Positions 36,648 through 58,194 of a stretch of DNA of 60,628 bases are shown here, one piece after another. Source of the stretch: a virus (lineage: Duplodnaviria > Caudoviricetes); the IMG/VR virus record IMGVR_UViG_3300010157_000068, positions 1 to 60,628 of that record. One strand, 5' to 3'. The notes beneath the pieces were generated by a model. It did not search any database and had not been told where the DNA came from. It saw nothing but the letters and a program-made list of their open reading frames with translations. A program made the position numbers and the translations under genes. Position 1 is the stretch's first letter; each line of letters opens with the position of its first letter.

Positions 36648-36702
36648 TGTACGTTTTTTATTGCAATTTACCGTGAAAATAAATTTTCGAGATAAAAAGT
36701 TA

Positions 36703-39356: not shown

Positions 39357-39360
39357 AAAT

Positions 39361-39442
39361 AAAAAACCACCAAATCAAAAGGTCGCCGTCTTTATCATTG
39401 GTGGAATTTGTATAAATCTTTAATTGTAGCGGCGACTCTACA
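39361..39442 (-). ncRNA. Candidate two-hairpin kissing-loop leader RNA
   Basis: Loops GUCGCCG and CGGCGAC are exactly complementary. The second hairpin is followed by U6. Confidence 0.65.
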
Positions 39443-39446
39443 GGTG

Positions 39447-39454
39447 CAAAGATA
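39447..39454 (-). promoter_or_regulatory. -7 promoter element TATCTTTG for the HNH gene
   Basis: CAAAGATA on the + strand, directly upstream of the leader. Confidence 0.7.
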
Positions 39455-39583
39455 GTAAAAATATTATAAATCTTTTAGGTTAATTCGTTTATTTAGCTCC
39501 TTTTTTAATTAGGTAGTACCATAACCAGATTGCTTTAGACCTAAGAATCTCATAAAATGCCCATAACAGAATGTATTTCATAT

Positions 39584-40793
39584 CTATAGGTTTAAGTTAC
39601 TTCTGTTCTGGTGAACTTCCTTCTCCATCTGTTCGTAAAATATAGTCACCTTACGTGTCTCGCACCCCATTTTGTGTATTCCACCTGCTTGATTACAGTG
39701 GGTGCACTTATCTGTAATGATCTTGTATCCAGTGTCAATGCGCTTGAAGTCCTTGACCAAATAATCTTTGAATCCAAAACTATCTAGCGGCATACCTCTA
39801 GAAATATAGGGGCCGCCTGACGGATCCACCATCTCGATCTCATTAGTCAGTGAGTCAATCATCCTGACGTACTTATCGTATATGTGTTTATGAGTCTCAT
39901 CATCATATTCGTGTACAGCTTTTTTAAACTGTTGAAGTGTCATCAAAGACTGAACGTGTTCGTTATCTTTTAGGTAAGTTTCGTATGCTCTAGTGTAATC
40001 ATTAGGTATTCCAAACCTGCAATATTTAAAATCACCCTCCCAAAGTACGTCGTGGTTTTCATCTCTTGTAAATGTGTACTCGTCACCGTACCTATTTTTA
40101 TAAATGTTTTTCATAGTTTTAATTTTACAAATTCTTTTAATGATTTTTCGCTTATATAAAATGCAATTACATCTCCGTTAAATTCTCTTGAATAACCAAA
40201 CATTTTACACACATCGTCATAACTCAAGCAAGGCTTATTGTATAGTATAAACTCCTCGGCCTCTTCTTCGGTTTTAAAGTTTCTTAAACTGTCCTGTAAA
40301 ATTGGAAGACATCCTTTATTATGTACCTGATATACCTTCCATGGGTCAAATGACTGATACTTGTCTTTAAAAACTACATAGTGTTTGTCAGTTACTTTTT
40401 TCCAATATTCAGGGTGCGACACATAAAAACCTATCCCCTTCCATTCGTTAGTTTTGTTTTCTGAAGAATGTACAGTACCTAGCTCAGGCGAGCCAGGATA
40501 CTCTTTAATTAATTTATATTTCATATCCTCTCTCTTTTAGTTACTACCTCGTATATTATTTCTCTGTTAATTAACTTCAGCAAGATAAGTAATTTTTCTG
40601 CTGTAGAATAGTCTAGATATACTAATTTTTCATTTTCTGTGGTAACTGCTAATCCATTACCGTCGTCTGTTATTCTTAACGCTAACTCTCCAGAACTCAG
40701 CCATTCAATATTATCTGAATAATACAACTCGTGGTGGTTGTCATCTAATTTGTAATCGTACTCGTGCTTGTTATCTACTAGTATCTGTTCCAT
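39584..40793 (-). CDS. Three hypothetical proteins (39584-40114, 40111-40524, 40521-40793)
   Basis: ATGA-overlapped ORFs. Confidence 0.65.
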
Positions 40794-40796
40794 ATT

Positions 40797-41675
40797 TTAA
40801 ATATTTAATTCTAATTCAGTTTGACTTCTTGGTATTAAATCATTTATTCCACACATACCATTACATTCAAATAAAGGCTCTACCTTTCTAGGTGGCATGT
40901 CGTCTATACTCTTGTTGTTCGGATACGCAGGGTGTTTCTTAAGGAACACTAGGTGAGACTTAGGATCTGTTTTCTTTTTCTGCTCTGCCTCGTTAGACTG
41001 ATCCTTAAGCATGGTTACCGGCTCTCCTTTTAACTCTGTAAGTTCGTGCTCTAGGTCTGCCATCACATCAAACTTATCCGGAAAGTCTCTCTTCATCTTC
41101 TGCCAGTAACCTATACCTCCCTGAACGCAGCCAGTGGAGAAGCAGTTGTTATTTTGAAAACCTAACCTGTACATCTCAGGCACCTGTATGCCGGCGTCTT
41201 CCGTAATCCTTATACAGTCCTGCTTGTTATATCCTAGCATAAGCAGTGGGTATATTGCCTTGGTCCTCTTACCATGATTTAGAGTCATTGATAATGCCCT
41301 GTTAAACTCCTTCTTATCAAACTCAAATCCGAATACCTGATGCTTAAAGTCGTTAGTCTTCTCCCACTTCTCGCGAACAACCCTCTTAAGATTCGTAGAA
41401 CATATGGCGCCATTAGCTGTATTTAAGGACTTGTGCTTCCTCCACACATCAAATATGTTTCCGTACTTTTCTCCTATCCCAGTAATAACTTCTATATCTA
41501 GTCCGTACCATTTCTCGCAGTCAGTCTTAAATCTATACGTATCCGGATGCTCGTTCTGTGTATCAATCATTATAACCCTGCAATTCTCTAGTCCGTAAGT
41601 ATCTATAGCTATCTTACAAGCTACAGCAGAGGTTACCCCCCCCGACCACCACGCTATTATTTTATTATTTTCCAT
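40797..41675 (-). CDS. PAPS-reductase-family (PP-loop) protein with Cys clusters
   Basis: WWSGGVTSAV loop, ICSTNLKR, YRLGFQNNNC...GCVQGG and a terminal ECNGMC. Confidence 0.8.
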   Translation of the reverse strand: MENNKIIAWWSGGVTSAVACKIAIDTYGLENCRVIMIDTQNEHPDTYRFKTDCEKWYGLDIEVITGIGEKYGNIFDVWRKHKSLNTANGAICSTNLKRVVREKWEKTNDFKHQVFGFEFDKKEFNRALSMTLNHGKRTKAIYPLLMLGYNKQDCIRITEDAGIQVPEMYRLGFQNNNCFSTGCVQGGIGYWQKMKRDFPDKFDVMADLEHELTELKGEPVTMLKDQSNEAEQKKKTDPKSHLVFLKKHPAYPNNKSIDDMPPRKVEPLFECNGMCGINDLIPRSQTELELNI

Positions 41676-41992
41676 ATTATAACTATTATAATTAATGTAA
41701 TTACAAATAAAAAAATTCCTGTTTCAACTTCTTCTTCATCTTTTGTTTTTGGATTCCAGTATCTTTCTTCGTCAATAGATTCTTGAGGAGTTCCAAAACT
41801 ATGATGATTATATCTTTGATTATTTTGAACAGATAATAAATTATCAACTATTTTATTAGCATCTTCTTTAGAATATAAATCATATACATTATCATTACAT
41901 TTTTCACACTCTACAACCCATTCGCTTCCGTAGTAAACTGAATGAAACTTATGTAAACAATTTTTCATACTTTTATTTTTTAGGTTTTTCAA
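41657..41992 (-). CDS. Hypothetical protein with C/H motif and C-terminal TM
   Basis: C.H.F...CEKC and a hydrophobic tail. Confidence 0.55.
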   Translation of the reverse strand: MKNLKNKSMKNCLHKFHSVYYGSEWVVECEKCNDNVYDLYSKEDANKIVDNLLSVQNNQRYNHHSFGTPQESIDEERYWNPKTKDEEEVETGIFLFVITLIIIVIIWKIIK

Positions 41993-42242
41993 AGTACTTC
42001 ATAGTGATGTAGTGCATACTTACGCTACCTACAACAGAGCCTATTAAATAAGCTATCATTAGTGTAACGTTTCCAAAGTTAGTTACAACATTTCGGATAA
42101 CTAATAACCAAATTCCATTACTCAGTACAGATGCAATAGTGTGATACATTATACTATTACTATTTCTTGCCCTGCTAACTAAAGTAAAACTTGCGTTTTG
42201 TAACGCAGTTAATCCAAGCATTATTAAAATTTCATTTACCAT
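41973..42242 (-). CDS. Small three-TM membrane protein
   Basis: Three hydrophobic helices, Y..GS..GS motif. Confidence 0.65.
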   Translation of the reverse strand: MVNEILIMLGLTALQNASFTLVSRARNSNSIMYHTIASVLSNGIWLLVIRNVVTNFGNVTLMIAYLIGSVVGSVSMHYITMKYFEKPKK

Positions 42243-42486
42243 ACCTTAAATATTTATACACCTTTGGCAGTACTGCCATGGCTAGTTCAACTTTCTTATA
42301 ATATACCTTACCAAGGTTCTCCCTGGATCGGTACTCTATTCCGGTCACTGAGTCGTAGTGCCGGTCCTTACCGCACGCGGTTATACCTCCCTTCCTGACC
42401 GCTATGTACGCCCCACCACCGAACGGTTTGACGTACACCTGCCAGTCATTCTGTACTGCCCATCTGAAGTCGTCTGGATCTATCAA
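42232..42486 (-). CDS. Hypothetical protein
   Basis: Coupled to the primase stop. Confidence 0.55.
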   Translation of the reverse strand: MIDPDDFRWAVQNDWQVYVKPFGGGAYIAVRKGGITACGKDRHYDSVTGIEYRSRENLGKVYYKKVELAMAVLPKVYKYLRYGK

Positions 42487-44885
42487 AATTTAAACTCTTC
42501 GTTATTATGTGTGTCACCCTCCTTAGTGATGAACTTGATCCACCGCCCGTTTCCGTCGCGTCCCTCAAGAGGAGTCACTCCGGTGACGTACACCCCGTAT
42601 GCTATTAGCCACTTGTAGAATAACGTCCTACTGATGGTCATCTTAGCCTTGGGTGCAAAGTCAGGGTTGTCCTGAATAAAGTCAAGGTACAGGTCCTGCT
42701 TGTATAGCAGCTCGTCTAGCCTCATCATCCCGTTATGAGAGTCTCCGCCGACCATCCCACACCACTCTATAAACTCGTGACAGGTCTCGGCAGATAGCTT
42801 ACGAACCTTAAGGTTCACAAACGTGCTCTTGATAAGTCCGGTGTCTAGGTAGGACTTCAGGTTATTCACAACGTAGTTATCGAACCTGCACCACTCCTCC
42901 TCATCCCAGTCATCGAACATCATCCGGCCGAACTCGACAAGCGGAGTGAACTCCTTGCTATAGAACTGCTTAAACTCTAGCTCCCACTTACGTCTCTCGA
43001 AAGAGTTACCCTTACCCCTAACGGCGTAGTTGGTGGTGATGATAATCTTTGGCGACTTTCTAAACGGAAGGTGGAACGCGTCCTTATTCTTCTTCTCAAC
43101 CGTAAGCCCCTCGGTAACAACACTGAACAACCTCTCGAAGTCGAAGTGCTTCTTAACGTCGTCAAAGGACAGGACCTGGGTACCTACGTTAACCGTCTGA
43201 TACGCGAAGGACTTGTCAAAGTTAAATGACTTTCCATCTATAAATATGGTCTTCTTGATCTTAGATATAGCTCTAACGAAGATACCCTTTCCGGTACCTC
43301 CCTCAGGGTTGTCGCTGATCACCTCGTCGTTTAAGATAATGGCCGGACAGTATGCAGGGTTCTTGTACCCGTGCATAAGGAACCCTATCGTGCTCTCCAT
43401 GGACTTGATCCTCTGGTCATCCTCTCCTGATATGTTGGATATAAAGGTCCTGAAGTCGCACTCGGTTACCTCGCATATCGCGAAGTCTCTGTCGATTACC
43501 TGCTCCTTCCATATGTACCCGTCAAGGTCTATGTAGTCTATAATGTCGACACGGTCCTTGGTCACCTTAACCGCACAGTTGTTATAGTACAGGTGAGCCG
43601 TATCGGCCGTATCTTCTACGAAGTACACATCTACAGATCCTAGCATGGATAGGAAGTCCTCCTTAAAGAACCTGGTCTTGTCGGCAAAGTAGTTGTACAC
43701 TGAAAGGTCATCCATGTCCTCAAGGTACGATAGCACGAAGTCCTTTATCTCGTCCTCTGAAGTGTTGTCTATCAGGTTGTTAGTAACCTTAACTAGGTTA
43801 AAACTCTTGCTGTTCTCAGGGTAGAACTTATAGAACCCGTTGTCCTCCAAGAACTCCTTGAATAGGTTATGCACTATACTTACGGCGCCCTTATCGTTCT
43901 TGGTCCAGAACCGCTTTGTGTCGCTATCAATCCTGTCCAGGACTGCGTCGATGACACCCTCCTCAATGTCAGTCATCTCCGCCTTGATCTGCTTGACCGT
44001 GGCGCCGTCCTTGACCTTCTTCTTTAGCTGAGAGACCCTAGCGGTGTCTTCGTAGTACTTGGTGCCGAACTTGCTCACGTGACTGTATGCGGAGTTGATG
44101 GTCATCTTAATCTCAGACATGGGGAAGTCCTTCTGCTCGAACTGACCTATGATGTACTCGGCAAGAGACTTGCTGATTCCGTAGTCGTTAAACGCGGCAG
44201 CCAATATGTACACGTTGTGGTTGCGCTCACCGTCAACCATTCCGTACTTGTTTGTCCACCACTTCATGAGTATGTCAACGATCCTGTTCTCGTTGGTTAT
44301 TGGAATGGTAGGGGCCTCACTTACCCTCTCAATCTCAACGAACTCCTCCTCGTGCATGCGGTCCCACAGCTTAGACTCCTTGTTGATGTAGATATCCTTG
44401 TCGTAAGACTCGTAGCATACCCTTGAGATATTCTTAGACGTGGTGTCAAAGTGAGGTGTGTTAAAGTAGTTCTGAAGCGCGTTGAAGTACTTGACGTGGT
44501 TGTCTACGTCCTGAGGTATCCTTACAAGGACCTTTAGACCGTCCCCGGATGGAGATACAAATACAGCGTACACGTACTCGTCGGCTGCAATAGTAGCCTT
44601 CTCTAACATCATCTGCTTCTTGCTAGAGTATCCGTCAAAGTCTAGACATATAAGGCCGCTGTGCTCGGCTATTGAGTTGTCTAGTCTCTTGGTAAATATT
44701 CCTGAAAAGCATATGGCCGGCAGTGACTTTTTAATCTCGTTGCGCTCGGTCTTATCAGTCTCGGCCTGTATGCGCTCCACTATCTCTCGGCTCGCTCCGA
44801 TTCGTATGCGCTCCAGGACCACGTCTATGTTCCTATAGAACGGGGTGGAGGTGCTACGAATGTCCTTAAATATTGTTATCTTCAT
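42483..44885 (-). CDS. Primase-helicase (VirE-N/BT4734-like prim-pol domain, PriCT domain, SF3-like P-loop)
   Basis: KKSLPAICFSG..HSGLICLDFD..FVSPSGDGLK, GERN, EGGTGKG and SFDDV motifs. Confidence 0.85.
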   Translation of the reverse strand: MKITIFKDIRSTSTPFYRNIDVVLERIRIGASREIVERIQAETDKTERNEIKKSLPAICFSGIFTKRLDNSIAEHSGLICLDFDGYSSKKQMMLEKATIAADEYVYAVFVSPSGDGLKVLVRIPQDVDNHVKYFNALQNYFNTPHFDTTSKNISRVCYESYDKDIYINKESKLWDRMHEEEFVEIERVSEAPTIPITNENRIVDILMKWWTNKYGMVDGERNHNVYILAAAFNDYGISKSLAEYIIGQFEQKDFPMSEIKMTINSAYSHVSKFGTKYYEDTARVSQLKKKVKDGATVKQIKAEMTDIEEGVIDAVLDRIDSDTKRFWTKNDKGAVSIVHNLFKEFLEDNGFYKFYPENSKSFNLVKVTNNLIDNTSEDEIKDFVLSYLEDMDDLSVYNYFADKTRFFKEDFLSMLGSVDVYFVEDTADTAHLYYNNCAVKVTKDRVDIIDYIDLDGYIWKEQVIDRDFAICEVTECDFRTFISNISGEDDQRIKSMESTIGFLMHGYKNPAYCPAIILNDEVISDNPEGGTGKGIFVRAISKIKKTIFIDGKSFNFDKSFAYQTVNVGTQVLSFDDVKKHFDFERLFSVVTEGLTVEKKNKDAFHLPFRKSPKIIITTNYAVRGKGNSFERRKWELEFKQFYSKEFTPLVEFGRMMFDDWDEEEWCRFDNYVVNNLKSYLDTGLIKSTFVNLKVRKLSAETCHEFIEWCGMVGGDSHNGMMRLDELLYKQDLYLDFIQDNPDFAPKAKMTISRTLFYKWLIAYGVYVTGVTPLEGRDGNGRWIKFITKEGDTHNNEEFKF

Positions 44886-45645
44886 GACTAATAAGTTGTT
44901 GTTTGTGTCTAAGTATAAGTCCTAGTATCTCTAAAGCAACTGTGTCAGGAACCCTCACAGTAAGTCCCTCCTCATTTATCTCTGGCTGATCGTCTGAGAT
45001 AACAAACGCACCGGTGGCCGTAGTCGATGTCCACATATAAGGCTGCTGAGAGTTCATCTCGTTAAGTAGGTCGGTCTCGAAGTCCATCGATATCCATACA
45101 GCAGACTTAGACTCTATTGTCTTTTCAGCGGCCTCTTGTACTGCGTCTATGTCGTCCTGAAGGTTGAGTATTCTTTCGTAGGCCTCAACTACCTGCTGCA
45201 TTTTTTTTCGTTCCATATATGAATTTGTTCTTTTCTTTTAAAACGTTATGACAAAAATTTATCTCGTCCTCGGTGAGCATATTGTAAAATATCTGAAACT
45301 TACCGGTGAACCTCATGTTCTTGATGCAGGACTTCTCGTTAAGGTAGTTCCTATAGTTAAGCATCATAGCCTGTGTATTACCTGTTCTAGTCTCTCTACC
45401 CTGCCCAACAGGTCTGTGATGTCATTGCTAGCGTTAAGCACTAGCTCTGAGTATCTTCTAATCGTCTGACTCAGCTTAGGGAAGTAGTAGCGCTCCTCGA
45501 ACTTGTAGCCCTCGGTTCCGCCGTCCTTCTTCTCTCTTACTCGCTGCTCGTGGAATACTAGGACTAGTCCCTTGAACTGATCCGGCTCTAGGTAGTAGTT
45601 ATTGTCTAGAGTTATCTTCTGCTTCTCTTTAAATATTTTGTTCAT
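44866..45645 (-). CDS. Three hypothetical proteins (44866-45216, 45185-45367, 45364-45645)
   Basis: Overlapping, co-oriented ORFs. Confidence 0.55.
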
Positions 45646-45659
45646 GTCTAAATAATATT

Positions 45660-45686
45660 AAAAACCCTCCGTCTATAGGAGGGTTA
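45660..45686 (-). terminator. Terminator after the SSB gene
   Basis: AACCCTCC...GGAGGGTT hairpin with an A-run on + (U-run on -). Confidence 0.7.
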
Positions 45687-45695
45687 TGGTTAATG

Positions 45696-45986
45696 CTAAA
45701 ACGGCAAGTCATTTTCAGGTTCTGCCGGTGCTTCCTTCGGGGCTGGCTTCTTAGCGGATCCGTCTCCGTCCCATACAACCTTTCCGTTACCCAAGAAGTT
45801 ACGGTTCGCCTTAGACTCGCGCTCCTCTTTTGTTTGACCCTCCCACACAGAGACATTGTTTCCGAACTGATCCTCTTCGTCGTTCACGCTGATTGTAAGG
45901 TTAGCGTAAGTTCCCTTTGCGCCTGAAACAAGTTTACTCTTGTCTAGTTTTGTCACGTCGATACTCAAAGCAATTAACTTTGCCAT
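45696..45986 (-). CDS. Single-stranded DNA-binding protein (short, Bacteroidota-phage type)
   Basis: Beta-rich core, P/A linker and acidic ENDLPF tail. Adjacent to recombination genes. Confidence 0.7.
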   Translation of the reverse strand: MAKLIALSIDVTKLDKSKLVSGAKGTYANLTISVNDEEDQFGNNVSVWEGQTKEERESKANRNFLGNGKVVWDGDGSAKKPAPKEAPAEPENDLPF

Positions 45987-46050
45987 AATAAAATAATTTA
46001 ATGTTTCGCTTACTCTATTACACAGTTTTCAGCTACCCTGTTTATTTTAA

Positions 46051-46262
46051 AAACCAAACACATCCACCAAGATTGGAATAAATTTATTGACTTTGGTGAA
46101 CTTATCTGTTTACTCCTAATCCTCAATATTTTTACCATACTCAACAAAAATAACACTTCTTGGGAGTGTTTACAATACGCTAAAATAGTCCTTGATACTT
46201 GGTCTACCCTTTAGCTTCGAGCATCCTATATTGTATTCGTTGTCTTTCTATGTGTTTGGTTT
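46051..46262. ncRNA. Candidate 212-nt structured RNA or miniature element
   Basis: 13-bp perfect terminal inverted repeat AAACCAAACACAT/ATGTGTTTGGTTT enclosing at least three nested hairpins. No long ORF. Confidence 0.55.
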
Positions 46263-46297
46263 GTGCATTATTTGCACATCACTCTTTTAATTTCTCA

Positions 46298-47029
46298 TCA
46301 TAAAGTATCCTGAATAAAGTAGTTGTTAATGTCCTCTGTAGCATTCGCGCTGAAGAACGTGTTATACACGTTCACTGCTCTGGCCACCTTGTCTCGGCCC
46401 GCCATCAAGAACTCCTCGCTAGGCTCAAACACACCTAGCCTGTGGCTCTTCTTGCATATCACATAGAACACAAGGGGTTTTCCAAACAACTGCCCGTAGA
46501 TGTAAGCCTGGCTGTCGTAGTTGTACTTGCGCGCAGACCACTTGAAGTCGTCTATGTCTGATGTGGTCTTGATGTCGATAAGGATCTCATCCGTTACAAT
46601 ATCAGCCTTGCCTTTGAAAGGCAGTCCGAATAACTCTCCGATGGCTGGCTCCTCGTAGATGTTACCCTCCCTGTAGATGTTATCGTAGAAGAAGAAGTTA
46701 CCCTTCATGGTCCCTACCAAAAGATCTAACTCCTGCTGCTCATTTTTAAGAAGCAGGATAGGATTAGATGAGTGTGACACGGCATCCTTGTAGATGTTTG
46801 TGTTACGGGTTGAGGCCTCAACAACCTCAAAGTTTACTAGCTTCTCAGGCTCAAGCATTGACGTGTGCAGGTACGACCCGTGAAGCATCGGTAGGGTCGG
46901 CTCCTCTCGGACCTTAAACATCTTAGGGTTCTTTAACAGCGTTCCTATGTCGCTGTTGCTGATGTACTTACTACCGTACTCGCCGTAGTAGTTAAAGTCA
47001 TTTCTTAGTGTGTCAATTACGTTCTCCAT
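46298..47029 (-). CDS. RecE/ExoVIII-like PD-(D/E)XK exonuclease
   Basis: ISNSDI, GSYLH, KGKAD...IDIKTT and Y..QAYIY. Confidence 0.85.
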   Translation of the reverse strand: MENVIDTLRNDFNYYGEYGSKYISNSDIGTLLKNPKMFKVREEPTLPMLHGSYLHTSMLEPEKLVNFEVVEASTRNTNIYKDAVSHSSNPILLLKNEQQELDLLVGTMKGNFFFYDNIYREGNIYEEPAIGELFGLPFKGKADIVTDEILIDIKTTSDIDDFKWSARKYNYDSQAYIYGQLFGKPLVFYVICKKSHRLGVFEPSEEFLMAGRDKVARAVNVYNTFFSANATEDINNYFIQDTL

Positions 47030-47030
47030 A

Positions 47031-47612
47031 CTACTTCAATAAATCTCCTAAGGCCTTCTTAACGGCAGTGGATAGGTTATACTTCACTGATAAATTCTTG
47101 ACGATCGTGTTCAGGTCCATCTTGGACTTGTTGGCGGTAACGTAGTTAACCACTCCTGCCCAGTTCGTGTCGTCAACCTTAAGGTCAATCTTTGTGGAAG
47201 GGACTGGCTTGGTGGCCTTTGCCGTGTCAATAGAGTCCTCTCCACTCCACAAATTTAGTCCAAGGCCGTGCATCGCTATCGCCTTAGTTGTTGATCTTTG
47301 AATCGTTTTATTAACATCCATCGACGTGATAGCATCAATTGATATCGACTTGTTGTTGTAGCTCATGATCGGAAGGTAGTCGATATGCTCTAGGCCGTCT
47401 ATGTTTACCCCGACCTTTACATAGGCGCTCTTGCCGTCGTTGAAGTAGTTAAGGCCTGTGTGAGGGTCCTCGTATACTGTTCGGTTAAGTGACGGGTATA
47501 ATGCCTTGGCGCTGCCCCACGCGTTTGACCAGCTTAGGTAGTCCTGGCCGCCCTTCTTCTCTATCTTAGACTTGATGTCTACCTCTGATAACTTCTTGAA
47601 TGTGTTCTCCAT
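47031..47612 (-). CDS. Single-strand annealing protein (Sak3/DUF1071-like)
   Basis: EKKGGQDYLSWSNAW...VNKTIQRSTTKAIAMHGLGL.LWSGED. Confidence 0.8.
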   Translation of the reverse strand: MENTFKKLSEVDIKSKIEKKGGQDYLSWSNAWGSAKALYPSLNRTVYEDPHTGLNYFNDGKSAYVKVGVNIDGLEHIDYLPIMSYNNKSISIDAITSMDVNKTIQRSTTKAIAMHGLGLNLWSGEDSIDTAKATKPVPSTKIDLKVDDTNWAGVVNYVTANKSKMDLNTIVKNLSVKYNLSTAVKKALGDLLK

Positions 47613-47627
47613 TGTTTATTTATTTAT

Positions 47628-50600
47628 TTATTTATAGTTATTTTTTTTATCAATCTCCCTCGCCTTATCTACAAACTTGGTCAGGTCAACATGAGAATGG
47701 TACATGGTAACGTACCTTATTTTTGGTGTGTCTGTAAGGTTTCCGTCGTCGTCGAGGTATATCTCTTCCGCGTGCAAGGTCTTACTTATTAGGTACTCTA
47801 GCGCTGACTGCTGCATGTTTCTAATTTTAAGATGTTAATTGTTTCTACGAATCTATTAATGACCGTGTCTCTGTACTTTACTAGCGTGTTATACCTTCTT
47901 AGGTTGCTCATGGTCTTTATCTCAGCTGAGATCTTGTCGGACACGTTGTTTAGGGATCGGCTGTTGTTCTTGGTGGCTATCACGCAGCAGCCAACCTTCC
48001 ACCCGTGCCTCTTGAATACTAGGTACTCCTCAGGAGAGATCTCCGAGTAGTAGTCACCGTTAAACTTTGTGTTGAGTATAACGATGTCTCCGGACCGGTT
48101 CTCTATCTTTACCCCTTTAAATATGTAAGACACCGAATGGTCCGTAACAATTCTTGTGCTCGTCTTATCTCTGCTGGCCTGATCAAATACTTTATTCATA
48201 ACTTATTTCTTTTTAAATTGTTCAAATAATTTATTGATTAAAGCTCCATCAAGCATAATACCATAATGCTTTCCATATTCTCCAAAAGCATTGTAAAGAA
48301 TCTCTCCAACTTCTTCCTCACTATACATTCTTTTAGCTTTCCATTCAGCACCATCTACTACACCTGCTTTGTATGCTAATTGTAATTCTTCTGAGTGACC
48401 ATATAGTAAATCATTGTTTTCATGAATTATGTATAATTTTTCACCAATTTCTTCAAGTGTTTCTTGTTTAGGTAAAGACTTGTAAGCCATTTCAGCGTCT
48501 AAATGCATACATTTTTGAATTGTTTTTGATTGACCAATAGCGTAATCAGAAATTATATCTCCTGTGCTTTTTGGGTATTCTTGTTTAGGTTCTTCTTCTT
48601 TCTTCATAATTTACATTTTCAAAAGTTCGTCTTTTATTTGGTTTAGATACACTAATTTTACAACAATATCGTGATTATAAATAATTCTTAAAACTTCCTC
48701 CAACAACTCAATCTCTCGGTTGATTGATATTAGTGCGCATTGTGCCTTATGTCCTTGATTCATAGAAACAGGAAGTCCTTTAGAGTCTTTATTTTTACCT
48801 CCTAGTTTGTAATAATAAATTACGTTATCGTATTCTTTAATCCTTCTCTCCGCTTCTTGTCTTGCTTGTTCTTGTGTCATAACTTCTCCTTAAATTTTGT
48901 TAGTAATTGGTCGATGTCCTCAACTGCAACAGCAGTATTAAAATTATCTACATCATATTTTTTACTCTTAACCTCCTCCGCAAATGCTTCTAGTAGGTAG
49001 TTGGAGTAGGCTTGTGCAAAAGCTAAATCATCATCTGTTACCCAACAAATAGCATTTTGTTTATCACTCTTAAACCACTCCTTTGATGATAGTATTTTAT
49101 CCATTGTTATCGTTAATAATAGTGTTTAAATGAAACATTGAGTGTAAAAATGCTAGTGCAAAAGCCAATACAGATAATTTATTTAAATCATTGTAGAAAG
49201 CTATTACTCCACAAGCTAAACAAATAGCGCATCTTATTAAGTATATGTTTTTTAATATTTTATCCATTGTGTTTAGTTATTAGTTGTTTAAGTTCTTTTA
49301 TTATTGGATTTGAAAAACTATACTGTTGGTCGTTATAAAAATAATCATAAGCATTTTCTAATCCTTTAACCAACTCCTCCTTATCCCTTCTCAACTCCTC
49401 TATTGTTTTATCTCTTTGTTGTAAAGCATTTTCACAATGTTTAAGAAGTTTTTTTGTTTTTTCTAAATCAATATTACTAAGTTCTAAGTCTAACTTTGAC
49501 ATATCTATTTCTTTCTGTGCGTGGTTGTAGGCTTCCTCTAACTGTGTAATGTATCTAAGAACACTAATTGGTGTTGTCATATAATTTTCTTGACAATTTT
49601 CTTTGTAATAATTAATGTCTTTCTCAATAGTCTGTTTAGGTTTAACCTCAATATAATGCCCTTCACTTCCACAAGGACTATCGCAATTTACACAACGATA
49701 AAACTTATTAGCTTCACCGCAAAATATTTCTTTAGGTTGGTCTTGTGGGATGTTCTTATTCATAATATTTGTCTTTAAAGATTTGTAATAGTTCGGTGGA
49801 AGTATATAATACTCCTTTATAATCAAACTTATCATCCCAACAATCATAGTCGGTGTTATTTTTTGCAAAATTCGCAAACTTAACAGCAAAATCATCCGCT
49901 ATTTGTTCGCACTTATCCGCTTTGTCAAAATAGTCTAAAATTATAGCTTCAAACTTCTCTCTTAACTTACTCATAACTCTATTATTAAAGGATTGCTTAC
50001 CGTATTAATATGGTTATTGTAGACCCTCTGATAGGCCTCAGACATTCTGCTCGCGTCCGCGTAGTGGATCGTCTTGACCCTGAGTCTCATCCACCGATCG
50101 AACCTATTCATCTCTCTGGCTGCCGCCTTGCTCTTTGTATCTTTCATTTTTGTATATCTTTATGTAATAATTTAGTAACTCCTTGTCTGTCATGTAAGCG
50201 AAGTCTATAGTCCGCGTGTGCCCGTAGAACATTATCATCTCTAAAACGGTGCTCCTTCTGTTAAATTGCATGCTCTAGCTTCTTAGTGCCTGACTTGACT
50301 GTCTAGCAAGTTCCATTAGCAGTTTCTTAATAAATGACATATCGTCTTGTGTTTTAGGTTGTTATTAACTACGTTTTTAGCCTCCGACCATGGAAGGTCA
50401 CACTCATCAGCGGTCATCCTTACCAAGGCACCGTACACCCTTTGGCGTCTCTTCTCCGTCTGAAGGAACGCCCTGATGTCTACTCTGTTTACTATCCTAG
50501 GTCTCATGCCTGTATTGGGTTAGATGTTGCCTCGCTCCATCCTGCCAACTCTTTCCAAATTCGGAAGAGTTTTTTAGAGCGTATTATGTCTCTCTCGGTG

Positions 50601-51428
50601 ATAACGGACTTATTAAATATGTCCACTATCTGTTGCTCAATTTTTTTCATCGCTCAATATTTTAATTAGTTCCTCCTTACCGTATTTTAATGAAAGTTGC
50701 TCGATGTCGGAGGGTAGGGTGTTTTCGATTTTTTCTGCCCAAGTGCCGTTTTTAAAAATTAAACATCCTCCCTTATATAGTTCATTATCTTTAAAATAAA
50801 ATGTAGTTATATCTCCGTTTAAATCTACAATTCTACCATCTGCTAAAGAGTGAACTTTCACCCCCTTTTTAAACCCTCTCTTAACCGCTTCTTTAGTCAA
50901 TGCTTCTTCTACTTCTTGGGGGGTGGCTAGAGTCCATTCTGAAATAGGGTATCCACTTAATCCATTTTCTCTATATTTATCAAACCAAAATCCACAACTA
51001 TCAATTCCATATCCTAATCCTTCGTTATAAGCCACAGTTCCTACGCTATTTTTATACCACTTCCCAACCTCCAAACTAGGCTTTCTAAACTCTTGAAACC
51101 ACTCCTCTATTTTCTCCTTGCACTCATTTAACGAGTGCAGATAGGTTATTTGTTTTTTGGTTAGGGTGTAGGTTGGTTCGATACCACAGGCATTTAAAAA
51201 TATCTGCTCGTCCCATTCCTCGTATCGTTTTTCTAAATCAAGTACCGAAATATCAAGTTCGGAACCGTTACCAATACAAGGACAGTACTTTCCAACCCAA
51301 CTATTACATAGATAAGGGTGGTACTCCAATCCCCAAACATTTTTTGTAATTCCTACCAACTTAGGCTCAATAGCCGACCACTGCTCTTTATTGCATTTCA
51401 TCGCAATAGGCGTAAATTTTGTTTTCAT
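47628..51428 (-). CDS. Cluster of small early/middle hypothetical proteins (47628-47816, 47798-48199, 48203-48607, 48611-48880, 48877-49104, 49260-~49763, 49756-49974, 50316-50507, 50637-51428 and shorter ORFs)
   Basis: Tightly packed co-oriented ORFs with patchy base composition. Confidence 0.6.
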
Positions 51429-51769
51429 CTGTTAAATAATTGAATTAGGCATCCGCTTGTAGGGGCGCCTGAGTTAAACGTGTATGTTAATTTATTGTCC
51501 CTAGTCATTCCGATAACTATAGGCTTGGCTTGCTCGTTCTGAACCCTCATCTCAAAGTACCCTCGGTCCAACATCTTAACCTCTGACACTCTGTCGGTGG
51601 TTGATAGCAACGTGTCAGGTATAGAGCCGTTAAGGTCGATAAGGGTGAGTCTGTCACCCGATTGTAGGTGGATAGATGTTGTTTTTAGGTCTTCTGAGAG
51701 ACTTTCTTGCTCGGAAGGTGATGAGCACCCGTACACTAGTACAAGTGCGCTTAGGATTAGTTTTTTCAT
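51425..51769 (-). CDS. Lipoprotein
   Basis: MKKLILSALVLVYG-C lipobox followed by an S/E-rich segment. Confidence 0.75.
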   Translation of the reverse strand: MKKLILSALVLVYGCSSPSEQESLSEDLKTTSIHLQSGDRLTLIDLNGSIPDTLLSTTDRVSEVKMLDRGYFEMRVQNEQAKPIVIGMTRDNKLTYTFNSGAPTSGCLIQLFNR

Positions 51770-51944
51770 GTCTTAATGATTTAAGTTATAAAATAAGGTC
51801 CACCCTATGCATGTTAGTATCATGCATATGAATCTAAGTTGTTTGTTGTCGCCTGACTTGTTTATAAAGTCTACTGCCGATGACTCTGCATAGGACAGTG
51901 TAAAAAATAAAGATAAAAAGAATATAGCCGTCATGATTATTTGT

Positions 51945-53129
51945 CTAGTTTAATTGTTCTATTTTAAATTGTTCTGAAAGTTCCTTGCATAGGTCTTCGG
52001 CAAACTTGTAGTCAAGTTTTCGGAATCGATTCTGACCATAGTGAGGTATTGCCTTTTCTCCATCCGCGCATATAACGAATGGTACCTCTTCAATAAATAC
52101 GTTTCCCGATTCTCGGATGCCTTTTATTGTGTACATACTTCCTTTTACTAAGGACTTTGTTTTTGAGTAGTCTCCGACTGCGTCGCAAATACATACTACT
52201 TTTTCTCCTACTTTAAACATGATTATTTGTTTTGATTGTTATACCATCTGATGAATTTTACGCACGCGTTATAAACTGCATTAATTTTAATATCTGAGAA
52301 TTCAGATGACACGATACTGCTCTTAGTAACCAAGCACTGATAATCTCCGTCCTCTTGTTTGTTGATTTCGACTGAGTAATTTAGGTCCTCAATCTTCTCT
52401 ACCACATCCATTAACCAATTCCAATCTGAACTATACAAATCATCTTCCCATGACTGAGGGTTTTCGTGACCCATAAACTCAGCAATCATCTCGTTGTTCT
52501 CCTCGGTAGTAGGCTCTATGTATAGGCTCCGCTTGGCGCCCTCTAGAGTGCTATAGTCTTGGCTTTCGAATGACTCGTTTCCCTCCTGAATGACTTGTCT
52601 GTTGCCTTTTTTGTATACTACTGTGCGCATAATTCCCATGTGTTTAGTTTGGTTGAACGTGTTATCTCTAGGCGCTCGCATATGAACCGCGCCAACTTGT
52701 TGTTTACTGATTTTTGATCGATGCTCGGTGAGCCTATCACACTCACCACGTCGCGTGGCGACATGCCTAGTACCCGTGTGCAGAACTTGACGTCCTGACC
52801 TAGGTAGTAGATTCTGCCGTATGCCTCCAATGTCCAATCGTGTCCGAAGCCGTATGAGCCTCTTGTTATATTTACCTTCATAGCTGAGTGTATAAAATTT
52901 CTAACTCGTTCTTGTGCTCGTGGTTGTTGTCTATAGCGGACTGTACCGCCTTCTTCATGCTCGTTTGGTAGTCGTACTGCTCCCAAGTTCTGTTCAGGTA
53001 CCTTACGTGGCTAGTGCCAACATAGTTGTCGTTAATGTATAACGAACTAGCATGGACGAAGCCGTCACTCTTAGAACTGTAACTATTATCTAGTCTGTAC
53101 GTGTTGTTGTTTAATTTAAATTCTTTCAT
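51945..53129 (-). CDS. Four early hypothetical proteins (51945-52220, 52223-~52639, 52618-~52881, 52878-53129)
   Basis: Co-oriented ORFs, starts re-called to avoid long overlaps. Confidence 0.6.
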
Positions 53130-53325
53130 GTCAGAAATGTCGTTTTAGGGTTGCCCTACTCTACTATATATATTATTATATTATTATTATTTTATTTTAC
53201 TCTATAAAAGTAAGTAAAAATCAGAATACTAACATAGAATAGACTAAACCCTTATAAACAAAGGGCTCAGTCATGTGTCGTTTTCTAAAAAAATCGTCAG
53301 GCCATGTCAGATAATCGACACAAAC
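53128..53325 (+). repeat. Degenerate inverted repeat, copy A (origin-like)
   Basis: 53128-53147 is the reverse complement of 56242-56261 (20/20). 53216-53238 is the reverse complement of 56151-56173 (23/23). An AT-only tract lies between. Confidence 0.9.
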
Positions 53326-54773
53326 CTATACTTTTATGCGTCTGAATAGCTTCTCGTCGAACTTGTACGGCTCTCCCGTGTACCTTGGACTGAATGCTAT
53401 CGCGTCCATCACGTCTGTTGAGATGGCAATACTATCCTGAGTCATCTCCGATGCCAGGTTCTCGAAGTCGGTTAGGACCTTAGACTGCCTAGCGTACTTG
53501 TACTCGAACAGACCGACAAATGTCGGCTCTACGTTTCCTAGGTACTCCATATCTACGATTTGGAATCCCATCAGCCTATAGTTGCCTTCCGATGCCATCC
53601 TGTCTATTACTTCTGAAGCCGTGTAGGGGTTGTTGTTTAACCCGATGTTTACTTGTAGTGTTTTCATGCCTTTTTAATTTGAATGTTTAACGTTGGATAT
53701 TTTAATGAGAAGCTAGACGCGACCTCTAGGGTCTCGTCGTAAGAACTAAACCCGAATATTTTAGTCTCTTCTAGGTTGTCGTCAATTAGTACGACCTCGT
53801 AGTTATCTTCACTGTCCACGCTCTCTGTTACGTACAGAAAGTTGTTGTCCTTGGCTTGCTTTTCAAGCGCCTCATAGCACGCATCGTATGTTGCCTCGCT
53901 ATCAAAGATGGCTACCAATTCAGCGTAGCCATCCGTCTCAAAGTATACTCTTACCATAATAATTAGAATGTGCCCTCTGTGGGCGGTTTGTGGTTATCAA
54001 TCATCTCCTTTAGTCTCTCTATGGTGCCCGATTGGGCAATGACCTTGCCCCTCTCGTACCTATAGTTGGTGTGCTTGTTGCCCTTGTAGTCTGTACGTTC
54101 AAACTCTGTAACGTACCTCATAAATTCTGTGTAGTCCATACCTATTCTATTTCAGTTAGTACCCCGTCTACCTCCTCGTATTGGTAGTCATCCTCGTCCT
54201 CCCACTCTGTGTAGTAGCACTCTTCGTTGTCGTTGTCCTCCCACTCTGCCTCAAACATCTGCTCGAAGTCATCGTATCCGTTAAATGCAGCGACCTCGTC
54301 TGCCATCGATTGCTCGGAGTAGTACTCACCAAATATGTACCACCCCTTGTTCATTCCCTTGCCCGAAAACGAGCACTTTCTTGCGTACTTCATAATTTTA
54401 GTATTAGTTGATTTGATTTGTATATCATCGCAGTGAGTATGCCTCTAACGTTAGGCACAAAGAAGTTATCCTTGACCACCTTGTTAAGTTCTCTTTTCAC
54501 TACTAGTCTCTCCCATATAGTTTGAAAAGAAGCCAAGGGGTCTATGCAGTCCCAAAGACCGTTCGCGCTTATGTATTCCCTAGCTTCCTTGTATGTTGAG
54601 TAAGGACCCTCGTGTAACGCTAGGCGTACCTCGAAGTCGTGAGTAGACATACCTAATTCCTTAGCTACAATCTCTGTAGCTTTGTATATCAATTCCTGAG
54701 TCTCGTCAGAGTAGAACCTACCCTCGCTTTGCAGTCTGTCTAAGACATCTTCTACTATTTTTAGTGCTCTCAT
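53326..54773 (-). CDS. Five earliest small proteins (53326-53667, 53664-53957, 53963-54139, 54142-54393, 54390-54773)
   Basis: Coupled ORFs downstream of the early promoter. Two are strongly acidic. Confidence 0.65.
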
Positions 54774-54949
54774 CTTATATCTTTGTTAAATACGTAAATC
54801 ATTACCGCGCTTAGTACCATAATCATCTCTAACCACCCCACAAGGATGATGTTAATGATACTTTTGTCAGGCATCTCAATGCCCAACTTGATTACAAGGA
54901 TGGCGCCTAGTATAAACACCACCATTAGTAGTTTGTCTGTTGTCTTCAT
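54770..54949 (-). CDS. 59-aa two-TM membrane protein, first ORF of the early operon
   Basis: Manually translated MKTTDKLLMVVFILGAILVIKLG...IYVFNKDIR*, with an ATGA overlap to the next gene. Confidence 0.7.
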   Translation of the reverse strand: MKTTDKLLMVVFILGAILVIKLGIEMPDKSIINIILVGWLEMIMVLSAVMIYVFNKDIR

Positions 54950-54966
54950 AACTATAATGTTTTAAG

Positions 54967-55021
54967 TAACTGTTTCGTCATTTGTGACTCATCAGTCAGG
55001 GCACACACCCTGATACAGTTA
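54967..55021 (-). ncRNA. Type III hammerhead ribozyme
   Basis: Minus strand reads UAACUG-UA^-UCAGGG-UGUGUG-CCCUGA-CUGAUGA-GUCA-CAAA-UGAC-GAAA-CAGUUA. The catalytic core is complete and all three stems pair perfectly. Confidence 0.95.
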
Positions 55022-55280
55022 ACGACCTATGCCTATGTAGTTGGCAGTATCGTAGCTTCGGACCTAAAGGATTACTTTGACCTCTTATTCCTGAGTAGCT
55101 ACACCCGATGTTATAGTCTGTTCTGACTGCCTCCACTTTATAGGTCTGTGGTACCGACCGAGTTAATGACTGCCTTACTCCGCAGTGGTGATTCTTTTGA
55201 CTAGCACAGTGAACCACCTAAACTATATCGACTTTTTCTTTGGAGTCGTGAACCGTGAGAAGAACGTTGTCCCTTTTGAC
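55014..55280 (-). ncRNA. Candidate ~265-nt structured RNA released by the hammerhead
   Basis: Lies between a TAnnTTTG promoter and the cleavage site, with at least seven nested helices. Confidence 0.55.
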
Positions 55281-55284
55281 ACTG

Positions 55285-55292
55285 CAAACATA
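55285..55292 (-). promoter_or_regulatory. Early promoter -7 element TATGTTTG
   Basis: CAAACATA on the + strand, at the head of the entire minus-strand arm. Confidence 0.65.
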
Positions 55293-56059
55293 TGGCGAGT
55301 GTTTCAGTTGACCTAGAAAAAAATGATAAATCCGATTAAGTGCACAGTTTTATCGATTAAATGCACATCTGATAGAGTAGATTCCTACAAATCGTGTAGA
55401 TATTACTGCTCACAATATGTAACTGATTGATAACGAGATAGTTAATATGTATAGTAACTTTGCATATATAGAACGCGTGTGCGTAGGTGACTAACGGGTG
55501 TTAGTTAACTTGCCATCTGTAAGCCTTTAAGCGCTTTTTTCTTACAATTCAATAACAAAACCCTACATATAATACGAATTTCGCATTTTAAAGCTATTTA
55601 AGCGACGATTATGTAATCAGAGGTAGTTAGATACCACCTACCCAGAGATAGTGTCTTAATCGCAAATCCCCAATGAATACGCGGGCTCACGTCGTAGGAA
55701 TATACTGCAGTATAGTTGCAGACTATCAGGCCTTGGCTGCTCCATAGATCTCTGTTATAGTTTACTCTTACCCGTTTGTTGTCGGCTATCCGTTTACAAA
55801 TGGATATCACCGTATCGCATATCGCGATATGAAATGCAGAAGACTTGCCATCGTAATGTCAAACGTGCACGTCACAAGCTATCAGATAGGGGATGGAAAA
55901 AGCTAAAAAATCTGAAAGAAATTTCTGAAAATGTGACCCCGGGGGTGAAATAAAAGCGACTTTCGGATGAGGCATGCCGACGTGAAACCTATATATAACC
56001 CAAACACCATACATTTCTAACATATTTTTTTTAGCTCATCCCTTGCTATCAGAGGGCTA

Positions 56060-56261
56060 CGTCGATTTTTGATGCCTTGTGTCGATTTTGTGTCGATTTT
56101 TTTTAAAGTTGTCATGAGATAATTATTTGACTATCAAGTAGTTAGCTATCTCTATGTTAGTATTCTGATTTTTTTCCTATTTTATAGAAGAAAAAAAATA
56201 AATATATATATATAATTATATATAGAGAGAGTAGGGAGATGTAAAACGACATTTCTGACAT
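56060..56261 (-). repeat. Degenerate inverted repeat, copy B, with GTCGATTTT iteron-like repeats
   Basis: Reverse complement of 53128-53325. GTCGATTTT occurs three times at about 56061-56100. Confidence 0.9.
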
Positions 56262-56305
56262 ACAACTATTTTTAATAGTTGTGAATCATATATATAAAAA
56301 AACCA

Positions 56306-56313
56306 TATATTTG
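56306..56313 (+). promoter_or_regulatory. -7 promoter element TATATTTG for groEL
   Basis: Consensus match upstream of the ATG at 56348. Confidence 0.65.
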
Positions 56314-56347
56314 CCCCATACAATAATTAAATTAAATTTTTTTTATA

Positions 56348-57931
56348 ATGAGCAACGAATTATTTTTTAAAGAAGAGGGCCGTCAGAAACTTGTAGATGG
56401 TATCACAAAGATCAGCAGCGCTGTAAAGAGCACCCTAGGCCCTAGGGGGAAGACTGTGCTTATCGAATCACAGAACCACGTGCACGGTATAACTGTGACA
56501 AAGGATGGTGTAACTGTGGCTAAATCAATAACACTTGAGGACCCGGTAGAGAACCTGGCTGTAAAGATGATGAAGGAGGCTGCGGACCGTACGGCGACAA
56601 GCGCAGGAGATGGTACAACAACCGCAATTGTTCTAACAGAGGCAATAGTAAACAAGGGGACCGAGTTTATAACCAGTAGAAATAATCCTACCATGGTCCT
56701 TAGGGAGGTGAACACGATCGTGGACGGCGTTGTAAAGACACTTGAGAAGAAGTCAAAGAAGGTCAGAGGAAAGACCCTAAGAGATGTCGCGTCTATATCC
56801 GCAAACAATGACAAGGAGATAGGGGATATTATCGCTGACGCGTACTCAAAGGTTGGCAAGGACGGCGTTGTGACTGTTGATGACTCCCAGGACGAGAACA
56901 CATACGGAGAGGTGACAAACGGAATCCGGGTGGATAAGGGGTACACGAGCAGGCTATTTGTGAACGACATGAAGAAGGAGGAGTGCATACTAGACAACGT
57001 GTACGTGATGGTCACAGACCAGGAGATAAATAACATGATGTCTATAGAGAACGTCCTAAAGCCGATAGTTCAGGACAAGAAGAAGCTCCTTATAATTGGC
57101 CCGTGTACAAACAACATGATCAACACACTAGCCGCGAACGTAATACATAACGACCTTAAGTTCTGTAACATTCCGCCCCCACAGTTTGGTTACAAGCAGC
57201 AGGAGCTGATGCAGGACATAGCCCTGGCACTTGGAGCCACGTACTTCAGCGAGCAGACCGGAGACGACCTTTCGCTAATGACGCCGGAACACCTGGGACT
57301 AGCCAAGAGAATTATAGTCGGAAGGGACTCTACAGTAATTGTAAGGAATGAGGACGCCAGCGAGGCCGTTAAGGAGAGAGTGGCACAGTTATGGGTTCAG
57401 CACGAGAACTCGTCTAAGAAGGGCGAAAAGGATGCGATTAAGGAGCGCATAGCCTCTCTATCTGGCGGAGTAGGAGTGATACACGTAGGAGGAGGATCGG
57501 GCGTGGAGCAGAAGGAGCGCAAGGACAGGGTCGACGACGCGGTCTGTGCTGTAAGGAGCGCGCTTGAGGAGGGGATCATACCAGGAGGAGGTGTGGCACT
57601 ATACAACGCGGCGTCTGACATCATAGCGTACGCTGACGATAACATGGAGCATATAAGTCACGACCAGTACACGGCGATGCAGATCGTTGGCTGGGCACTT
57701 CAGGCACCCCTGATTCAGATAATGGAGAACGCAGGGCTGGACGCCTACGCGATAATGGCCTCTATCAGCGAAGAAGGGCACGGGTACGATGTAAAGAACG
57801 AGTGCTACGGAGACATGATGGCCATGGGCGTTATTGACCCGTTAAAGGTTACCAAGAACGCTCTGAAGAACGCGACCAGCGTAGCCACGACAATACTTAG
57901 TACGAACGCGATAGTAACAATTAAACGATAG
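56348..57931 (+). CDS. groEL: Phage-encoded chaperonin GroEL
   Basis: TLGPRG, TKDGVTVAK, AGDGTTTA, DRVDDA, GIIPGGG and GVIDPLKV motifs. Confidence 0.97.
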   Translation: MSNELFFKEEGRQKLVDGITKISSAVKSTLGPRGKTVLIESQNHVHGITVTKDGVTVAKSITLEDPVENLAVKMMKEAADRTATSAGDGTTTAIVLTEAIVNKGTEFITSRNNPTMVLREVNTIVDGVVKTLEKKSKKVRGKTLRDVASISANNDKEIGDIIADAYSKVGKDGVVTVDDSQDENTYGEVTNGIRVDKGYTSRLFVNDMKKEECILDNVYVMVTDQEINNMMSIENVLKPIVQDKKKLLIIGPCTNNMINTLAANVIHNDLKFCNIPPPQFGYKQQELMQDIALALGATYFSEQTGDDLSLMTPEHLGLAKRIIVGRDSTVIVRNEDASEAVKERVAQLWVQHENSSKKGEKDAIKERIASLSGGVGVIHVGGGSGVEQKERKDRVDDAVCAVRSALEEGIIPGGGVALYNAASDIIAYADDNMEHISHDQYTAMQIVGWALQAPLIQIMENAGLDAYAIMASISEEGHGYDVKNECYGDMMAMGVIDPLKVTKNALKNATSVATTILSTNAIVTIKR

Positions 57932-57933
57932 AC

Positions 57934-58194
57934 ATGCAGCCAATAGGTAAATACATAGTGATAACTCCGATAGAGGAGCAGATAAAGTCGGACGTAACCG
58001 GACTGATAATGTCAGGTTCAGATGCCGCCAAGATGAGGTACAAGAAGGCCGAGATAGTAAGGGTTGGAACGGAGGTCACCGCTGTGAGTGATGGGCAGAC
58101 GATATACTACGACAAGAACGCTGGGTTCAGCATGGTGACACAGGCCGGTACGTACACGGTGATAATGGAGAGGGATGTTATTGTGATTATTTAA
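57934..58194 (+). CDS. groES: Co-chaperonin GroES
   Basis: MQPIGKYIVI...GLIM...AEIVRVG...VSDGQTIYY...IMERDV, directly after groEL. Confidence 0.85.
   Translation: MQPIGKYIVITPIEEQIKSDVTGLIMSGSDAAKMRYKKAEIVRVGTEVTAVSDGQTIYYDKNAGFSMVTQAGTYTVIMERDVIVII

Follow-up and report, generated by a model that had tools for sequence, protein, structure and literature searches.

In the haloviruses HF1 and HF2, according to the available portion of Perreault et al. (2011; PMC3088659), a hammerhead ribozyme is found 13 nt ahead of the first early ORF, with a mapped 5' end falling within 3 nt of the cut. The same portion describes hammerheads that flank prophage genes, and the role proposed for ribozymes of the HF1/HF2 type is the processing of long phage transcripts. 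An engineered version of such an arrangement, as given in the accessible text of PMC6206723, is RiboJ, a hammerhead inserted as an insulator after the promoter and ahead of the gene. According to a 2019 review (PMC6765202), what ribozymes do for bacteria and phages has yet to be defined. Our search found no literature on the leader family reported here or on Elemovirus ribozymes; these sequences could be present in supplementary lists (hammerheads in Perreault 2011; ribozyme-neighbourhood motifs from the Breaker and Weinberg groups), and PMC7077304 holds 0 occurrences of ribozyme, hammerhead or GroEL.

The window, by which we mean the whole stretch of 60,628 nt that was analysed, is a complete phage record of ~60.6 kb and kin of the Flavobacterium podophages of genus Elemovirus. 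Its structural genes (terminase, portal and a 2942-aa protein) lie on the + strand, while small ORFs and replication genes form a ~20-kb block on the - strand, from 54949 leftward to ~35260. GroEL and GroES (56348-58194, +) are divergent from this block, with ~1.4 kb between the two that has no long ORF. The promoter-like element, leader and hammerhead described below sit in sequence at the head of the leftward early/replication block. Its first ORF (54770-54949, -) encodes 59 aa with no Pfam family, begins with an ATG at 54949, and is preceded by a 17-nt A/U-rich spacer (54950-54966, -) that separates the ribozyme from the start codon. A similar A/U-rich spacer is found in relatives, either after a hammerhead or after a tRNA-like minihelix, and the first gene past the ribozyme varies among them.

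Three other features of the genome were recorded along the way. The 2942-aa ORF (25567-34395, +) ends the structural block and has weak PHROG matches of unknown function; its size is reminiscent of the virion-packaged giant proteins in other podophages. The ~450 nt before groEL (55897-56347) have no long ORF and are 70-78% identical across nine relatives in which the neighbouring intergenic DNA is not alignable. That stretch may represent a further non-coding element or several small genes. In the gap between leftward ORFs at 45987-46297, a hairpin at 46007-46042 (-) resembles the DUF805b RNA (RF02914; 35.3 bits, where the cut-off is 35.6; E 2.8e-6), and in Rfam scans of the window at gathering and permissive thresholds this hairpin and the hammerhead were the only matches.

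The Bacteroidota-type -7 box TATGTTTG (TAnnTTTG) that the preliminary description had placed at 55285-55292 (-) reads as stated, and it is contained in a conserved 13-mer, TATGTTTGCAGTG (55280-55292, -). The window contains 82 matches to TAnnTTTG, where 61.2 +/- 7.8 would be expected, and such a match is by itself weak promoter evidence. With no mismatch allowed, the 13-mer has a single occurrence in the window, and its motif precedes the leader or hammerhead in most relatives. We infer that the element is used as a promoter, with a presumed start site a few nucleotides downstream of the box, at ~55277-55279; the leader would then be the first transcript of the phage. Some 40-100 nt upstream of the box are two 15-nt direct repeats, TGTGCAyTTAATCGr, at a spacing of 21 nt (55332-55367, -), and an inverted repeat, GTAGGAATCTAC (55377-55388, -). 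Similar upstream repeats occur in the relatives L106, L099, L097, L098 and L133, and they look like operator or regulator sites.

Positions 54967-55021 (-) match the type III hammerhead model RF00008 (Hammerhead_3) over model positions 1-54 of 54, at 47.4 bits against a gathering cut-off of 48.5 (E 4.8e-9 in a local scan, 2.6e-7 over the whole window), and this is the only RF00008 match in the genome. The element has a catalytic core CUGAUGA...GAAA of the form CUGANGA...GAAA, a GUA triplet of the NUH class, and all three stems: stem I UCAGGG/CCCUGA (6 bp), stem II GUCA/UGAC (4 bp), and stem III AACUGU/ACAGUU (6 bp, open-ended). The GUA ends at 55014 and the predicted cut follows it, between 55014 and 55013 and 64 nt before the first ATG of the operon; the structured tract had been proposed to end at this cut site. 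Across 27 relatives, 13 of the 18 hammerhead pairs changed on both sides. We treat the element as a genuine hammerhead with predicted catalysis. The window's own minimum-energy fold of core plus ribozyme has the hammerhead intact; in ensembles computed over core plus ribozyme for 46 distinct sequences, all three ribozyme stems had p > 0.5 in just 16, and the median probability of stem III was 0.44, values from a calculation whose index heuristics may fail on some rows. Because the ribozyme stems are often not dominant in these ensembles, constitutive cleavage is not guaranteed. In L106 (637-842, -), the nearest relative and one with the same leader, the 10.1-11.1 pair of the hammerhead, in stem II beside the core, is a U.U mismatch. 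A mismatch of this type served Perreault et al. as grounds for rejecting candidates, in the available portion of that paper (PMC3088659), and the L106 hammerhead may be weakened or dead; the core in L106 nonetheless scores 87.8 bits with the core model R2 described below.

Between promoter box and cut site, the preliminary description had seen one RNA of ~265 nt. Its anatomy of promoter, structured non-coding leader, hammerhead and coding message is supported by our comparison. The single conserved unit is not: the relatives divide this RNA into two parts, a widespread core and a lineage-specific 5' extension. Against the cultured-phage sequence elemoA, 54945-55152 alone aligns, at ~80% identity, and the flanks are unalignable. 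The conserved core, which we call type A (55014-55152, -; 131-139 nt), comprises six helices. P1 (55148-51/55133-36), P2 (55125-28/55115-18), P3 (55097-102/55052-57) and P6 (55043-46/55030-33) covary; P3b/P4a (55089-94/55058-62) and P5 (55049-51/55024-26) are helices as well, and P4b (55081-84/55067-70) is optional. The invariant unpaired nucleotides are AUAA...GGGU, ACUC, CGA and AnAUAG. The first of these lies in the junction J2/3 between P2 and P3, in which AUAA and GGGU alone are invariant and the middle is variable. The last ~8 nt of the core double as the 5' strand of hammerhead stem III, and P5 stops 2-3 nt short of that stem.

Relatives were gathered by a 15-mer scan of viral contigs (93 stretches, mostly chance, with 4 true homologues by BLAST), from 80 phage-GroEL loci, by a hammerhead pattern scan (68 stretches), and by a core-only pattern, limited to P2-J2/3-P3, run on metagenome contigs (29 contigs). 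A first model, R1, was built from five close sequences with the structure given by RNAalifold. In the test of R1 on 27 sequences, 92.8% of cells were paired against 72.2 +/- 0.8% in shuffles, with 0 of 500 shuffles as high, and 39 of 49 pairs changed on both sides (26 of 31 among the pairs outside the ribozyme); when the 3' partners were slid by 1-3 columns, pairing fell to 29.5-42.1%. The second model, R2, covers the core only (116 positions, 26 pairs), its structure having been written after inspection of the sequences, and scores 93.3 bits in the window (E 5e-16). It aligned 56 phage and metagenome sequences, 45 of them distinct, in which 91.1% of cells were paired against 70.2% in shuffles (reached by 0 of 500), 23 of 26 pairs changed on both sides, the covariation score was 0.557 against 0.185, and slid controls were 31-38% paired. 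The pair counts of both models are to be read with the alignments fitted to the models and the shuffles ignoring phylogeny. Taken together, these comparisons support selection on the structure of the leader.

Folding energy no better than in shuffled controls had been named as a possible refutation, and the energy is indeed no better than chance: the 267-nt tract has z = -1.29 (23 of 200 shuffles as good), and core plus hammerhead z = -1.72 (13 of 200). On thermodynamics alone the leader would fall; it is rescued by the comparison with relatives, where the preliminary description's expectation of conservation and covariation held, with 23 of 26 pairs changed on both sides among 45 distinct cores. 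The same description had failed to recognise the family, and Rfam 15 likewise holds no gathering-level match for the leader (55014-55279). At E up to 10, the region 54600-55700 gave the hammerhead and three chance-level matches outside the leader body only, and the relatives' leaders had no Rfam match. According to ARAGORN the window has no tRNA or tmRNA. With 45 distinct sequences behind it, the leader core represents a well-supported RNA family that is new and lacks a catalogue entry. The accessible part of a 2017 survey does not bear out a location of 'Drum' RNAs near hammerheads.

A 73-aa GTG frame (54996-55217) overlaps the tract. It crosses the ribozyme, and among relatives the core is 139, 141 or 158 nt long, with indels that are not multiples of three; because the frame runs through the ribozyme and the relatives' indels break it, the statement that the tract has no credible ORF holds.

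The 5' extension (55153-55279, -; 127 nt) contains three hairpins. It is common to the window and L106 alone, and is absent from elemoA, L109 and L119. For this pair of sequences RNAalifold predicts 30 pairs, of which 4 changed on both sides and 0 are broken, and all four helix positions that differ from L106 are compensatory. The hairpins 55244-48/55229-33 and 55211-18/55187-94 each carry compensatory changes; the third hairpin, 55182-86/55169-73, is predicted and invariant. Five of the seven helices originally drawn for the tract are thus retained, namely these three together with P3 and P6, which covary across the family. The other two have to be given up: 55143-46/55156-59 clashes with the covarying P1, and 55112-17/55222-27 with the covarying P2. 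P1, P2, P3b/P4 and P5 were absent from that drawing. The repeated 9-mer reported with it, AGGCAGUCA (TGACTGCCT on the + strand), does occur twice, at 55167-55175 and 55124-55132.

The type A core and the hammerhead are strictly linked in the sequences at hand. In the window and the 80 GroEL loci, each of the 17 R2 matches is followed immediately by a hammerhead, with a single match at each locus, and all 29 metagenome contigs recovered by the core-only pattern have a full core with a hammerhead. This linkage is one-way: every type A core seen leads to a hammerhead, and hammerheads also occur without a type A core. An R1 or hammerhead match was present in 30 of the 80 GroEL loci, and in 28 of the 56 that have at least 2 kb upstream of GroEL. 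The cultured phages with a core or hammerhead match are 68 records, all of them Elemovirus. Within the window's genome the core is single-copy. The core-only pattern had 0 matches in bacterial genomes, in a set where 185,579 prokaryotic species are represented by one genome each, and R2 had 0 matches in 151 Flavobacteriales genomes, a weak test in which 24 candidates per genome were scored; the positive control, the window's own genome, returned 93.3 bits. One contig of a Flavobacteriales MAG (L243, 59,714 bases) carries a GroEL 60% identical to the phage GroEL, all other cellular GroELs being at most 42% identical. The gene for that GroEL is the last on its contig, which has the size of a phage genome and was binned into the MAG, and R1 found neither hammerhead nor core there (0 matches in G001, the MAG that holds the phage-like GroEL contig). 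The contig is probably from a relative of the window phage.

Among the relatives, the modules of this locus are exchanged. A regular-expression census gave 82 distinct hammerheads, which by their upstream 150 nt comprise 33 in the type A cluster, 15 in another that unites types B and C, and a remainder of small groups and singletons. The type B leader is itself structured (11 sequences, 9 of 21 pairs changed on both sides) and replaces type A behind the same promoter and ribozyme; some type B variants have the P2 hairpin and AUAAAA of type A, sub-modules common to both types. No type B leader was present in the cultured Elemovirus records. In more distant GroEL phages, hammerheads stand after or between ORFs. 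In three loci the hammerhead's place is taken by a tRNA-like minihelix (L099 2825-2882, L134 2352-2411 and L138 1808-1867, all -), in which an 11-nt linker separates an acceptor-like stem of 6-7 bp from a T-arm whose loop reads UUCGAnU; the customary A/U-rich spacer and an ATG follow directly. ARAGORN called no tRNA or tmRNA in L099, L105 or L100, and the minihelices are uncalled by both ARAGORN and Rfam. The swap of ribozyme for minihelix suggests that the RNA has to be cut between leader and message, a cut that at the minihelices would presumably be made by host tRNA-processing enzymes. L105 has a leader without a detectable hammerhead, and a ribozyme remnant further on.

Two further observations belong to these loci. 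The leader in L099, which is ~400 nt long, is of a different kind as well. L124 (2088-2137 and 2323-2372, -) and L111 (494-544, -) show weak matches to the type I hammerhead at later points in the early operon (25-26 bits, where the cut-off is 34; E 0.05-0.08), and these may be additional processing sites.

We propose that transcription from the TAnnTTTG-type promoter at 55285-55292 (-) would first produce a non-coding leader of ~265 nt, consisting of the three-hairpin extension and the multi-helix type A core, and that the type III hammerhead would then cut itself between 55014 and 55013 in the infected cell. The released leader would carry a 5' triphosphate and a 2',3'-cyclic phosphate end and would persist as a discrete RNA, and the early message would keep a 5'-OH end, two ribozyme hairpins, and the 17-nt A/U-rich spacer before its ATG. 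On this scheme the ribozyme would be a host-independent processing site that uncouples a structured RNA from the message, as RiboJ does. Given that message decay can depend on the 5' end, a 5'-OH and hairpins should stabilise the message. The constant need in the lineage would be an RNA cut just upstream of the A/U-rich spacer and start codon, and a processing role is supported by the substitution of minihelices in L099, L134 and L138 and by distant hammerheads that lie between ORFs.

The released core, in our proposal, would be a functional RNA itself, likely early and trans-acting, in host takeover or counter-defence. We favour a trans-acting accessory RNA because the core always comes with a cutter, is swapped in the manner of early genes, and has invariant junction nucleotides; an accessory nature also fits with the exchange of type B for type A, the sharing of sub-modules, and the variable first gene downstream. 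The search for a target, ligand or protein partner yielded none: antisense pairing of the leader with the phage genome reached 8 matches of 11-12 nt, which is chance level, and no protein family tracks type A within 3.5 kb downstream, the best downstream ORF family being found at 12 of the 31 loci with type A and at 2 of the 15 with type B/C. For the reading as a whole, a ribozyme-released leader whose core is a functional RNA, most likely an early trans-acting accessory RNA, we estimate a probability of roughly 0.55.

The alternative that survives best, and one we consider possible while doubting it, is that the leader acts only in cis, either on the polymerase and against premature termination or as a Rho-resistant structured start, with the hammerhead then removing a hindrance to translation. 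The leader is indeed directly behind the promoter of a ~20-kb leftward block (35260-54949), that block contains terminator-like hairpins on the same strand (e.g. 45685-45663 and 53272-53242), and the order of promoter, leader, cutter and ORF is strict. However, terminator-like sites are not enriched (14 against 11.7 +/- 3.0 expected), and the leader is present as a single copy in the genome. Moreover, close relatives, presumably with the same host polymerase, have at least two leader types that are unalignable outside their shared sub-modules. An element that binds the polymerase would be expected to remain constant.

It is improbable, in our judgement, that the core is instead a sensor or aptamer for a metabolite, signal or protein that gates the hammerhead and tunes early expression to the state of the host. 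The core does resemble a riboswitch in being a conserved, covarying structure with invariant junction and loop nucleotides in a 5' leader, P5 ends 2-3 nt before ribozyme stem III, and stem III frequently fails to dominate when the ensemble is computed at full length. Pairing of the invariant GGGU with ACUC could give a hairpin incompatible with P3, and this hairpin appears in several single-sequence folds; GGGU/ACUC never varies, however, and is hence uninformative either way. Regulated cleavage of phage hammerheads was raised by Perreault et al., in the available portion of their paper (PMC3088659). Against gating, we found no conserved alternative pairing between core and ribozyme, and the window's minimum-energy fold forms the hammerhead intact. 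Near-identical hammerheads also stand behind other leaders and ORFs, so the ribozyme does not need the core.

Far less probable is a reading of the core as another self-cleaving ribozyme, of a new class, which would trim the variable 5' extension and leave a middle piece with a 5'-OH and a 2',3'-cyclic phosphate. Conserved structures located near hammerheads in phage-like DNA have in the past proved to be new classes of ribozyme, and a variable-length sequence followed by a sharply conserved core start would be compatible with such trimming. Yet the promoter box lies 15-17 nt before the core in L119 and L133 and directly before it in L117, and because it abuts or nears the core in all three there would be nothing to trim; nor, with E values up to 10 admitted, did any match to the twister, twister-sister, pistol, hatchet or HDV models appear. 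The least likely reading is that the tract has no function, being an untranslated spacer or short coding frame with chance helices, as the folding z of only about -1.3 to -1.7 and the overlapping 73-aa GTG frame might suggest, since 23 of 26 core pairs covary, far above shuffled and slid controls, the core is ~80% identical where its flanks are unalignable, and the frame is broken by indels and crosses the ribozyme.

A bolder reading is that the leader modules (A here, B/C in relatives) are RNA effectors or sensors deployed before any protein, an idea we hold tentatively and would sooner bet against. If it were true, a ribozyme-released RNA would neutralise or hijack a host factor, an RNA-only form of counter-defence or takeover swapped like early accessory genes; alternatively, a sensor-gated hammerhead would be the first natural ligand- or factor-controlled hammerhead. 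In the literature on phage and bacterial hammerheads, within the text accessible, we found no natural ligand-gated hammerhead. The profile of the core, covarying and uncatalogued with invariant junctions, is that of RNAs later proven to be sensors, ribozymes or protein partners. The lineage offers a clean, testable case for the purpose of phage hammerheads, with a ribozyme fixed in place after a conserved, promoter-proximal structured RNA and before the first early gene, natural swap experiments that provide other leaders, a tRNA-like element in place of the ribozyme and one degenerate ribozyme, and cultured relatives in the Elemovirus phages of Flavobacterium sp. BAL314.

Several known systems share parts of this arrangement. 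The put antiterminator RNAs of phage HK022 are structured RNAs behind early promoters that head long operons, and they act tethered to the transcript, on the polymerase and against premature termination. The window's leader, which we liken to put by description only, would by contrast be cut off, and its type varies among close relatives. Riboswitch-controlled ribozymes are represented by glmS and by the c-di-GMP-II aptamer with its group I intron. The likeness there is a sensor-like conserved domain beside a ribozyme in a 5' leader; unlike those systems, the window's leader had no Rfam match and no conserved alternative pairing between core and ribozyme was found. The ribozyme itself, a new member of an established class, resembles RF00008 in its full-length match, canonical core, and three stems with stem III open, although it stays 1.1 bits under the cut-off.

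The resemblance to HF1 and HF2, as these are described in the available portion of their report, is closest in position, the hammerhead lying 13 nt there and 17 nt here before the first ORF of an early polycistronic transcript. Here, however, the host is bacterial (the phages being of Flavobacteriia type), the ribozyme core is canonical, a conserved structured RNA precedes the ribozyme, the 5' end is predicted from sequence, and the upstream RNA is swapped among relatives, as is the ribozyme at three loci, where a tRNA-like minihelix stands in for it. The suggestion that this is an undescribed system must accordingly be divided: a hammerhead shortly before the first early ORF has already been described (PMC3088659, within its available portion), whereas the leader core family, as compared with catalogued RNAs, is new. 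The modular arrangement, including the swap of ribozyme for tRNA-like element, is likewise new among ribozyme-processed phage transcripts so far as these sequences indicate. With RiboJ, in the accessible account, the locus shares the order of promoter, variable 5' RNA, hammerhead, short spacer and gene, and a message freed from upstream sequence. RiboJ is synthetic and the piece that it removes is junk, whereas the piece removed here is conserved and structured and for that reason probably functional, which would make the arrangement a natural counterpart of the engineered ribozyme insulator.
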